In this document: positions 42,394 to 42,481 of the stretch, in pieces
Position numbering within the stretch: the first letter of the stretch is position 1
Layout: each line of letters opens with the position of its first letter
DNA from: an uncultured Candidatus Saccharibacteria bacterium
Lineage (GTDB): Bacteria; Patescibacteriota; Minisyncoccia; Phycocordibacterales; PALSA-1337
NCBI GenBank assembly: GCA_964631035.1
Contig: CAZVVX010000001.1
Span: forward strand, 1 to 53,349
DNA length: 53,349 nt
Direction: 5' to 3'
Notes under the pieces: generated by a model
The model's database searches: none
Seen by the model: the letters and a program-made list of their open reading frames with translations, nothing else
Told to the model about the DNA's origin: nothing
Program-made: the position numbers and the translations under genes

Positions 42394-42481
42394 GGAGGTG
42401 TGGCAGAGTGATTTAATGCACCGAGCTTCTAACTCGGAAGACTTGATAAGGGTCTCGTGGGTTTAAATCCCACCACCTCCG
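42394..42481 (+). tRNA. Atypical class II tRNA: Ser-type architecture with anticodon TCT (Arg codons AGA/AGG)
   Basis: GGAGGTG TG GCA GAGTGATTTAA TGC A CCGAG CTTCTAA CTCGG AAGACTTGATAAGGGTCTC GTGGG TTTAAAT CCCAC CACCTCC G. All stems are Watson-Crick. 3-bp D stem, 19-nt variable arm, discriminator G. No encoded CCA. Confidence 0.7.

Follow-up and report, generated by a model that had tools for sequence, protein, structure and literature searches.

The tRNA-bearing IS1595 element

The window analysed here, a whole stretch of 53,349 nt from contig CAZVVX010000001.1 of an uncultured Candidatus Saccharibacteria bacterium, is low-GC DNA (about 30–37%) from a genome of the Patescibacteria, or candidate phyla radiation (CPR), and contains type IV pilus genes. 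A 2,148-bp insertion sequence (IS) of the IS1595 family occupies a site between two paralogous pilin genes and carries, as cargo, an intact accessory transfer RNA (tRNA) gene (42394..42481, + strand) whose fold has been maintained by selection; the tRNA combines the class II body of a serine tRNA with the anticodon UCU, which reads the arginine codons AGA and AGG (AGR codons). The element is delimited by a left terminal inverted repeat of 33 nt, distal to the transposase (42150..42182, +), which is 73% complementary to the right repeat at the transposase end (44265..44297, −), the latter located by an inverted-repeat scan. Identical copies of an 8-bp target-site duplication, ATCTTATC, flank the repeats at 42142..42149 and 44298..44305, and 8 bp is the typical size for the IS1595 family. 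The right repeat contains a core, TATCCCTTGAC, that is common to 60 or more related loci and in most of them lies 30–90 nt upstream of the transposase start, and the left repeat is closely similar to the right repeat of a related element at locus L006.

The transposase is a 290-aa DDE protein of the IS1595 family (43378..44250, −) that matches PF12762 (2e-30) and NF033547 (2.4e-51; 174.7 bits, with a cut-off of 75), and it has 3,863 homologues at E ≤ 1e-20, many of them from Patescibacteria. Read in the direction of the transposase, the element consists of an inverted repeat, the transposase, an 85-aa open reading frame (ORF) and a 101-aa ORF, followed on the opposite strand, and continuing to the far inverted repeat, by a predicted small RNA, the tRNA and a leader (42183..42393, +) that ends in a long hairpin. 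The inverted repeats and the ATCTTATC duplication enclose the tRNA gene together with the IS1595 transposase, and the tRNA gene is cargo of a mobile element, as the first-pass annotation of this DNA had stated.

Structure and integrity of the tRNA

Transfer RNA genes were called over the whole window with ARAGORN and Rfam. ARAGORN reports six, including 42394..42482 (+) with the anticodon tct at position 35, and 42394..42481 is a full-length match to the Rfam tRNA model (59 bits; gathering score 29; E 2.8e-10). Folded to minimum free energy, the bare 89 nt give a cloverleaf whose variable arm is long (−33.5 kcal/mol, z −3.3), a value equalled by none of 200 shuffled sequences. The 88-nt tRNA begins with a 7-bp acceptor stem (GGAGGTG/CACCTCC), the 5' strand of which is linked by TG to a D arm with a 3-bp stem (GCA/TGC) and the loop GAGTGATTTAA, followed by A. 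The anticodon arm, CCGAG-CTTCTAA-CTCGG, presents TCT (42428..42430) between C32 U33 and A37 A38; the 19-nt variable region, AAGACTTGATAAGGGTCTC (42438–42456), forms a 6-bp hairpin that includes two U–G pairs; and the T arm, GTGGG-TTTAAAT-CCCAC, leads back to the acceptor stem and to a discriminator G73 at 42481, with no encoded CCA. The cloverleaf described in the first-pass annotation is thus present in every detail, and both the covariance model and ARAGORN accept it, so that 42394..42481 is confirmed as a well-formed tRNA, far beyond chance.

Two tertiary positions depart from the common pattern. With the D loop numbered G13 A14 G15 U16 G18 A19 U20 U20a U20b A21 A22, an A (A19, 42411) occupies the G19 position, and a U (U56, 42464) occupies the C56 position in the T loop. 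The closest homologue, at locus L198, has the canonical G19/C56, and the window tRNA therefore carries a double change that preserves the tertiary pair, as a compensated change from G19–C56 to A19–U56 had been postulated from the window alone. The gene bears no mark of a pseudogene: all 20 stem pairs are intact, the anticodon loop is canonical, the score is 59 bits and the homologues keep every stem through compensatory changes, in agreement with the earlier judgement that it is not an obvious pseudogene. As a separate observation, the window's own tRNA-Ser(GGA) at 18020–18107 (−) is called by ARAGORN and is absent from the Rfam list at the gathering threshold, on which the other five tRNAs appear.

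Serine and arginine identity

The IS-borne tRNA was compared with the bacterial identity determinants compiled by Giegé & Eriani 2023 (PMC9976931, Table 1). Six of the seven serine determinants are present, namely G73, C72 (in the acceptor pair G1–C72), G2–C71, G4–C69 (as R4–Y69), C11–G24 and the large variable region; the sole exception is the weaker G30–C40, in place of which the window tRNA has A30–U40. On the arginine side, C35, U36 and G73 account for three of the four determinants, and the missing one, A20, is the main bacterial arginine determinant, position 20 being U in the window tRNA and in all of its relatives. The 19-nt variable region is also at odds with the class I body of arginine tRNAs and its short variable loop. 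The anticodon UCU, for its part, is not one of those that read serine codons (NGA or GCU), and a single base, at position 34, separates the IS-borne tRNA from tRNA-Ser(GCU). Its best relatives in a phage database are T4-type tRNA-Ser genes (~75% identity), and the window's own tRNA-Ser(GGA) can be aligned with it. The serine-type body under an arginine anticodon that the first-pass annotation had recognised is therefore upheld by the determinants present, by the absence of A20 and by this alignment. Seryl-tRNA synthetase (SerRS) recognises its tRNAs independently of the anticodon, and since A20 is absent, serine charging of the IS-borne tRNA, with insertion of serine at AGR codons, would be the most likely outcome.

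Meaning and use of AGA in the host

In the GroEL and ribonucleotide reductase genes of the window, aligned to solved structures, 37 AGA codons fall on arginine 18 times, on lysine nine times and never on serine. The invariant residues R98 and R115 of the transposase are likewise AGA-coded, and both are arginine in all 80 homologues, where they are mostly encoded by CGN. Across eight host genes, AGA makes up 160 of 221 arginine codons (72%) and 3.2% of all codons. These figures substantiate the earlier claim that AGA stands for arginine here and is heavily used. Because AGA is both arginine and the dominant arginine codon in the host, a change of code does not explain the tRNA. Reassignment of AGA/AGG from arginine to serine, which would make the UCU tRNA simply cognate, has a precedent in some animal mitochondria, in which a serine-type tRNA(UCU) decodes AGR as serine (PMC4615739); for this host, however, it is already refuted by the alignment of AGA to arginine or lysine and never to serine and by the AGA codons at invariant arginine positions of the transposase, and with a tRNA gene that is IS-borne and absent from relatives, its probability is practically nil. 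With AGA at 3.2% of codons, a UCU tRNA would mistranslate strongly if charged with serine, and would then be a potent mistranslator in this host.

The IS itself uses AGA less than the host does, with 6 of 18 arginine codons in the window transposase (33%, against 72%), and only 3 of 23 arginine codons are AGR in the transposase of the related L180 element. The coding sequence of the IS is compositionally unlike that of the host, and it would be slightly less exposed to an AGA mistranslator. A demand of the IS for additional AGA decoding is unsupported, since its genes are not enriched in AGR. Self-recoding, in which the transposase would require the odd tRNA, was considered and rejected: no conserved serine position is AGR-coded in the window transposase, and no conserved arginine position is AGY-coded in the transposases of the elements at L006, L064, L032, L020 and L050.

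Relatives and accessory status

Joint Genome Institute (JGI) metagenomes were scanned with a pattern that combined the D arm of the window tRNA and the T loop with a long variable region and any anticodon of the form NCU. It matched 118 loci, all with Rfam scores of 56–67 bits: 108 with GCU, which are ordinary tRNA-Ser genes, five with ACU, three with UCU (L120, L180 and L198) and two with CCU (L129 and L192). When the six tRNAs with UCU or CCU anticodons (the window tRNA and the five metagenomic ones) were parsed manually, 118 of 120 stem positions proved to be paired, with compensatory changes at 11 stem positions, comprising acceptor positions 3–7, all five positions of the anticodon stem and position 2 of the T stem. 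G1–C72, G2–C71, C11–G24, G73 and a variable hairpin of 4–7 bp are invariant, and the acceptor/T-stem geometry is 7/5 bp in all six. Between the L198 and window tRNAs there are three double compensatory substitutions. This compensatory pattern is to be read as purifying selection on a working tRNA, not as decay, and the UCU/CCU serine-type tRNAs as a conserved family that occurs sporadically as IS cargo.

Two of the relatives show how such genes are carried. The L180 locus (49% GC) contains a complete IS1595 element (110..3420) with 24-nt inverted repeats that are 88% complementary and with the duplication CTCGGTAAG; the element interrupts a helicase-like gene, and its inward-facing tRNA(UCU) lies ~260 nt from the far repeat, in the same layout as in the window. 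L198 is a Patescibacteria genome in which the module resides in an insert of ~1.2 kb between cca and xerC. At the start of the insert, CTGTGGATAACTAG leads into GCGTGTATCCCCTCACAGCATAAT, a repeat of the IS1595 type; ~225 nt upstream of the tRNA, TTATC precedes another sequence that resembles such a repeat, and the edges of the insert are remnants of IS1595-type repeats at a TGTGGATAA site. At about 1115–1150, on the xerC-proximal edge, there is also a palindrome, AATGTCAAGGG-TT-CCCCTTGACATT, that resembles two IS1595 repeat cores placed head to head. The insert lacks a transposase and may represent a non-autonomous derivative. Five orthologous cca–xerC loci (L211–L215; 73–79% nucleotide identity) retain the flanking genes and the TGTGGATAA site without any insert, so that the L198 tRNA is accessory and mobile. 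A housekeeping tRNA at a conserved, non-mobile locus, which the first-pass annotation had named among the observations that would undo its proposal, is accordingly rejected for L198, where synteny could be compared with L211–L215.

DNA homology between the window element and its relative at L085 stops at 42739, exactly at the start of the segment that holds the small RNA and the tRNA. Scans of viral contigs with tRNA and small-RNA patterns revealed no further copies of the module, a BLAST search of the small RNA against phages and plasmids gave no match, and among 210 loci searched by BLAST with the leader and small RNA, L198 was the sole match. Serine-type tRNAs with A34 (anticodon ACU) occur in dense, phage-like tRNA arrays (L141, 4771–4859; L150, 5314–5395; L107; L122; L134). 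The D and anticodon arms of the L141 tRNA-Ser(ACU) are those of the L198 tRNA(UCU) except at nt 34, which suggests that a single wobble-base change in a serine tRNA with ACU or GCU could have given rise to the UCU form.

The insertion site has features of its own. Joined to CACA, the opening bases of the inverted repeat, ATCTTATC rebuilds a DnaA-box-like motif, TTATCCACA, which occurs five times in the window (42145–42153, 44301–44309, 41528–41536, 6047–6055 and 14076–14084) against 0.7 expected. The same motif flanks many related IS ends, several of them in independent relatives (loci L005–L008, L089, L090 and L198), and marks the empty site in L211 and L213. Over-representation and recurrence beside independent relatives suggest that the IS1595 subgroup of the window element has a target preference for TTATCCACA. 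A variant, TTATCAACA, lies just 3' of the tRNA (42487..42495, +), and L198 has CTTATCCAC at the corresponding place.

The leader hairpin

The leader ends in a hairpin (~42306–42392) that stops 1–2 nt before the 5' end of the tRNA and has a predicted folding energy of −37 kcal/mol (z −6.98; 0 of 200 shuffles equal). Flanked by an A-tract on its 5' side and a U-tract on its 3' side, it has the form of a bidirectional terminator, so that the terminator-like leader noted at first pass is recovered by folding. Equally strong hairpins precede the odd tRNAs of L198 (z −6.9, followed by UUUUUCUUUU), L006 (z −8) and L192 as well, and in L180, a perfect 13-bp hairpin adjoins the tRNA. There is no room for a promoter between the hairpin and the tRNA, and every transcript of the tRNA must therefore read through the terminator-like structure. 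An upstream near-repeat of the 5' strand of the hairpin (42278–42287) could pair with the 3' strand (42364–42373) and thereby work as an antiterminator. Even when searched permissively, Rfam assigned neither the leader nor the small RNA to a family. An 11-nt stretch of the leader (42252–42262, ATTAAATCACT, at its predicted start) is complementary to the tRNA D loop (42407–42417, AGTGATTTAAT), A19 included; this complementarity is not conserved in L198 and lies within the range of shuffled controls.

A predicted downstream small RNA antisense to the tRNA

Downstream of the tRNA, on the same strand, a promoter-like site TTGACT-17-TATTAT (42508..42536, +; 10 of 12 consensus matches, by prediction) precedes a predicted structured small RNA of ~185 nt (42543..42725, +) with a strong predicted intrinsic terminator at 42691–42722. 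The aligned promoter positions in L198 read TTTAGT and TAGTAT. The first 16 nt of the small RNA (42543–42558) are antisense to the variable arm of the tRNA (an inverted repeat of 16 nt, 94%); the same RNA also contains an anticodon-arm-like hairpin, CCGAG...CUCGG, and a segment, GUGCAUUAAA, that is antisense to the D arm on its 3' side. Between the window and L198, the small-RNA segment is 66% identical over 201 nt while the upstream leaders have diverged, and the consensus fold contains 38 pairs, 6 of them compensated.

The complementarity follows each locus. The antisense pairing joins ACCCUUAUCAGGUCUU and AAGACUUGAUAAGGGU in the window and GCCCUUUCAAGGUCUU and AAGACUUUGAAAGGGU in L198, and each of the three differences between the two variable arms is matched in the antisense element of its own locus. 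A second antisense segment, CCGAG in the window and CCGAU in L198, tracks the change of the anticodon-stem pair G31–C39 to U31–A39, and a third, G(U/G)GCAUUAAA, can pair with the D arm on its 3' side; the order of the three fits an antiparallel duplex. The small RNA has the look of an inverted duplicate of the tRNA, diverged but still complementary to its own partner. Together, the terminator-like gate and the antisense RNA suggest that expression of the tRNA is normally held down rather than constitutive.

Other odd tRNAs in IS1595 elements

Several further IS1595 elements are associated with unusual tRNAs of class I. In L006 (Kaiserbacteria), a tRNA at 5201–5273 (+) lies inside an IS (~3954–5741) that has inverted repeats and the duplication CAGTTATC, and in L064 (Acidobacteriota), a tRNA at 7348–7422 (−) lies inside an IS (~3899–7888) whose inverted repeats contain the TATCCCTTGAC core. 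Both tRNAs have the anticodon ACU together with A20, C35, U36 and A73, and both score 56 bits with Rfam; that of L064 additionally has C33 and, as in the window, an A19/U56 pair. With this arginine-like identity set, the two are the mirror image of the window tRNA, possibly accepting arginine and reading the serine codon AGU. The L064 element also encodes, at 5034–7155, a PIN-domain protein in a toxin–antitoxin-like two-gene arrangement and an NYN-domain protein, and it carries, ~850 nt downstream of the tRNA (6471–6497), a 27-nt inverted repeat of part of that tRNA's D and anticodon arms. In the Saccharibacteria loci L032 (3733–3880) and L020 (3710–3880), an odd class I tRNA stands ~200 nt upstream of an IS1595 transposase; the anticodon is ACU in L032, and the loop is irregular in L020, where it is possibly AGC or GGA. 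In both, the tRNA is followed by a terminator and then by a 12–13-nt direct repeat of the 5' half of its own anticodon arm, and the repeat differs between the two loci. The L006 and L064 tRNAs hint that cross-wired tRNAs of the AGN box may be recurrent cargo of IS1595 elements.

A gated mistranslator as the preferred interpretation

The reading that we prefer, at a probability of roughly 0.45 and thus tentatively, is that the element carries a tightly gated, serine-charged mistranslator of AGR codons with an antisense partner, as selfish cargo. Serine charging, expression, toxicity and antisense action are in this case predicted from sequence. Charged with serine, the tRNA would put serine at AGR codons and be a natural missense mistranslator. 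To a host in which roughly 3% of codons are AGA it would do harm, and the layout of the module has the appearance of strict control. The terminator-like hairpin in front of it would keep the module nearly silent, and the small RNA, directed at the variable arm, the key recognition element for SerRS, as well as at the D and anticodon arms, would sequester or destabilise the tRNA, whether mature or in precursor form. In this way the two would act like a toxin and its antidote, or as a source of conditionally released mistranslation, to the benefit of the element; a harmful stable RNA held by an antisense RNA would follow the logic of a type I toxin–antitoxin system and favour retention of the element. 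A broader version, in which IS1595 transposons spread an RNA-only poison and antidote made of a stable cross-wired tRNA that swaps serine and arginine within the AGN box and of a small antisense RNA against the arm by which the synthetase knows it, appears unlikely to us. Cross-wired tRNAs of two kinds occur, with a serine body and UCU or CCU (window, L198 and L180) or with an arginine-like class I body that has A20, C35, U36 and the anticodon ACU (L006 and L064). Under the broader version, mistranslation across the proteome would follow if the element were lost or silenced, or if some trigger lifted the terminator gate.

Several observations weigh against the preferred reading. The tRNA is absent from the closest relatives of the IS (L085, L089, L217, L090 and L218, with transposases 90, 84, 79, 78 and 78% identical), so that the transposon does not need it. 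A simple scan found no strong sigma-70 promoter for the tRNA, and the gene may be essentially silent. The partner RNA is found in two loci only, with a complementarity that in each is marginally above shuffled controls, near the top of their range; template switching or gene conversion between short inverted repeats could keep such complementarity without selection; and L180, which has a serine-type tRNA(UCU), contains no detectable antisense partner. Finally, C35, U36 and G73 could permit some arginylation, and the requirements of arginyl-tRNA synthetase (ArgRS) in CPR bacteria could differ from those of other bacteria.

The last point bears on a competing explanation, that of a functional arginine tRNA of unusual shape, charged by ArgRS through C35, U36 and G73, with which the IS would boost AGA/AGG decoding for itself or for its host. 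Mobile elements often carry tRNA-Arg(UCU), and that habit speaks for it, as do the three of four bacterial arginine determinants, the anticodons of all six family members, which are UCU or CCU and hence the two decoders of AGR, and the GC-richer loci L129 and L192 (58% GC), in which AGR would be rare codons. It is nevertheless improbable, for A20 is replaced by U in the window tRNA and in all relatives, every feature that has been retained is a serine determinant, and the IS genes are poor in AGR by the counts given above; a helpful tRNA would moreover not be expected behind a strong terminator with an antisense RNA directed against it, and literature searches found no class II tRNA-Arg. A neutral hitch-hiker, that is, a chromosomal tRNA-Ser(GCU) or tRNA-Ser(ACU) that was captured through an alternative IS end, mutated at position 34 and is now decaying or silent, would agree with the single base that separates the tRNA from either serine tRNA (the L198 and L141 arms differ at nt 34 only), with the target-like TTATCAACA right after the tRNA, as if an older IS end had lain there, with the closest IS relatives that lack the tRNA and with the failure to find a strong promoter. 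Decay, however, would hardly leave UCU or CCU anticodons in six tRNAs of divergent sequence whose stems are intact and show numerous compensatory changes, or a compensated tertiary pair in the window; the tRNA and small RNA have been kept as a unit between genomes of 33% and 45% GC while the flanking leader diverged, and a serine-type tRNA(UCU) also sits inside the unrelated IS1595 element of L180, all of which leaves this explanation with little probability.

A third possibility, which we regard as rather unlikely, dispenses with decoding: the RNA would be tRNA-shaped in order to serve as a decoy for nucleases or toxins that attack tRNAs and are carried by such elements, or as a substitute resistant to them, or as a processing or structural module (with RNase P/Z punctuation) for the neighbouring small RNA. 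The PIN and NYN nucleases and the inverted partial tRNA copy of the L064 element would suit such a role, and most allo-tRNA(UAU) molecules, members of the unusual serine tRNAs considered below, have been judged possibly non-translational and linked to toxin–antitoxin systems or transposons (PMC5389517). In a long fold of the window region, moreover, the variable arm pairs with the downstream RNA, so that a co-transcript of the two would not form the cloverleaf. A decoy or processing signal would have no use, however, for the fully canonical anticodon loop (C32 U33 ... A37 A38), for a compensated A19–U56 elbow or for the acceptor features relevant to aminoacylation that divergent copies have all kept, and scans of the window IS with Pfam, NCBIfam and PADLOC reveal no recognisable nuclease.

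Comparison with known systems

Disagreement between identity and anticodon is rare among natural tRNAs; the known cases, which are the yeast CUG tRNAs, nev-tRNAs, tRNA-ProX and allo-tRNAs, are central to the ambiguity and evolution of the genetic code. The bacterial allo-tRNAs have serine identity, a long variable arm and non-serine anticodons; in E. coli, some of them decode sense or stop codons as serine, and some prove toxic or lethal (Mukai et al. 2017, PMC5389517). They are found near transposon-related and toxin–antitoxin genes and have been proposed to be missense suppressors and/or regulatory RNAs (PMC5389517). The window tRNA resembles them in its serine-type long variable arm, its non-serine anticodon and its mobile setting, allo-tRNAs often lying near mobile or toxin–antitoxin genes. 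The difference lies in the 12-bp acceptor branch, which is arranged as 8/4 or 9/3 in allo-tRNAs and as the canonical 7/5 in the window tRNA. The paper that describes them names UAU, GCG and GUC as predominant anticodons, with zero occurrences of UCU, and reports neither a tRNA carried within a defined IS, with its inverted repeats and target duplication, nor an antisense RNA cognate to the tRNA (PMC5389517). By analogy, the IS-borne tRNA would work most like the allo-tRNAs, yet it fails their defining geometry.

The nev-tRNAs of nematodes have leucine identity with glycine or isoleucine anticodons, are charged by an anticodon-independent synthetase and can thus mistranslate. They are class II molecules with a variable arm and with anticodons that are neither those of leucine nor those of serine (PMC3333845), and they share with the window tRNA a variable-arm body and an anticodon mismatched to that body. 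They are, however, eukaryotic and chromosomal, are not transposon cargo and have no known antisense partner. The tRNA-ProX group (ProA/ProN/ProT) depends on a dedicated paralogue of prolyl-tRNA synthetase. Found in Streptomyces and Kitasatospora, these natural tRNAs have identity elements for one amino acid and an anticodon for a different one, and deliberate, regulated mistranslation has been proposed for them (PMC11415595). Unlike the window tRNA, they have a class I proline body and A34 anticodons and are not reported to be IS-borne. For tRNA-Ser, the lethality and misincorporation of anticodon variants extend to arginine codons. In anticodon mutants of tRNA-Ser, including the yeast tRNA-Ser(UCU), the change of anticodon alone leads to serine misincorporation, and in a library of tRNA-Ser with all possible anticodons, many variants are lethal on accumulation (10.1101/2021.05.12.443880; PMC6125640). 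Those tRNAs are laboratory constructs or human variants, whereas the window tRNA is a conserved natural gene on a mobile element.

In type I toxin–antitoxin systems such as hok/sok, which lie on mobile elements, a constitutive small RNA is complementary to a hairpin of the toxin-gene RNA, and the "toxin" is stable. Their target is the mRNA of a toxic peptide, and the target in the window would be the tRNA itself; literature searches found no toxin–antitoxin system that has a tRNA as its toxin. Elements of the IS1595 family encode a DDE transposase whose N-terminus holds a zinc ribbon, are bounded by terminal inverted repeats and make an 8-bp target duplication, and some of them have passenger genes. 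The window element agrees with this description in its DDE transposase, terminal inverted repeats and 8-bp duplication, and no report of tRNA cargo in IS1595 elements was found in the literature. Nor did literature searches find a report of a bacterial serine-type tRNA of canonical 7/5 geometry with a UCU or CCU anticodon, or of an antisense RNA against the variable arm of a tRNA.

To the known cases the window adds a canonical 7/5 serine-type tRNA directed at the arginine codon that its host uses most, the carriage of that tRNA on a defined, mobile DNA transposon, by which it could be delivered horizontally into any genome, and a conserved antisense RNA and terminator gate paired with the odd tRNA. 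That the pair of tRNA and antisense RNA is categorically new is a less likely, though real, possibility. If the tRNA is charged with serine, the module would be a transferable device for regulated mistranslation and possibly the first in which a tRNA is the toxin; the broader poison-and-antidote version, if true, would constitute a new class of toxin–antitoxin or abortive-stress system with a tRNA as toxin. In annotation, callers that rely on the anticodon label such genes tRNA-Arg, which may mislead screens of CPR genomes for tRNA complement and codon reassignment.

Passenger ORFs and flanking pilin genes

The two passenger ORFs of the window element, of 85 aa (43063..43320, −) and 101 aa (42751..43056, −, downstream of the transposase and the 85-aa ORF, with a hydrophobic C-terminus), have no family match in Pfam, NCBIfam or PADLOC. 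They form a conserved two-gene cassette of the lineage to which the window IS belongs, and it occurs with or without the tRNA, as in L085 (4937–5511) and L218 (1203–1756), where no tRNA is present. A homology search with the 101-aa ORF gave two matches only, and one of them, L216, is without the tRNA. In size and arrangement, the ORF pair resembles toxin–antitoxin pairs. Paralogous type IV pilin genes surround the IS (40371–42069 and 44355–44819), with near-identical 5' ends (92–98% over 58–199 nt), and these repeats are probably behind the breaks in short-read assembly near the IS that gave the 2.7-kb contigs L003 and L004.

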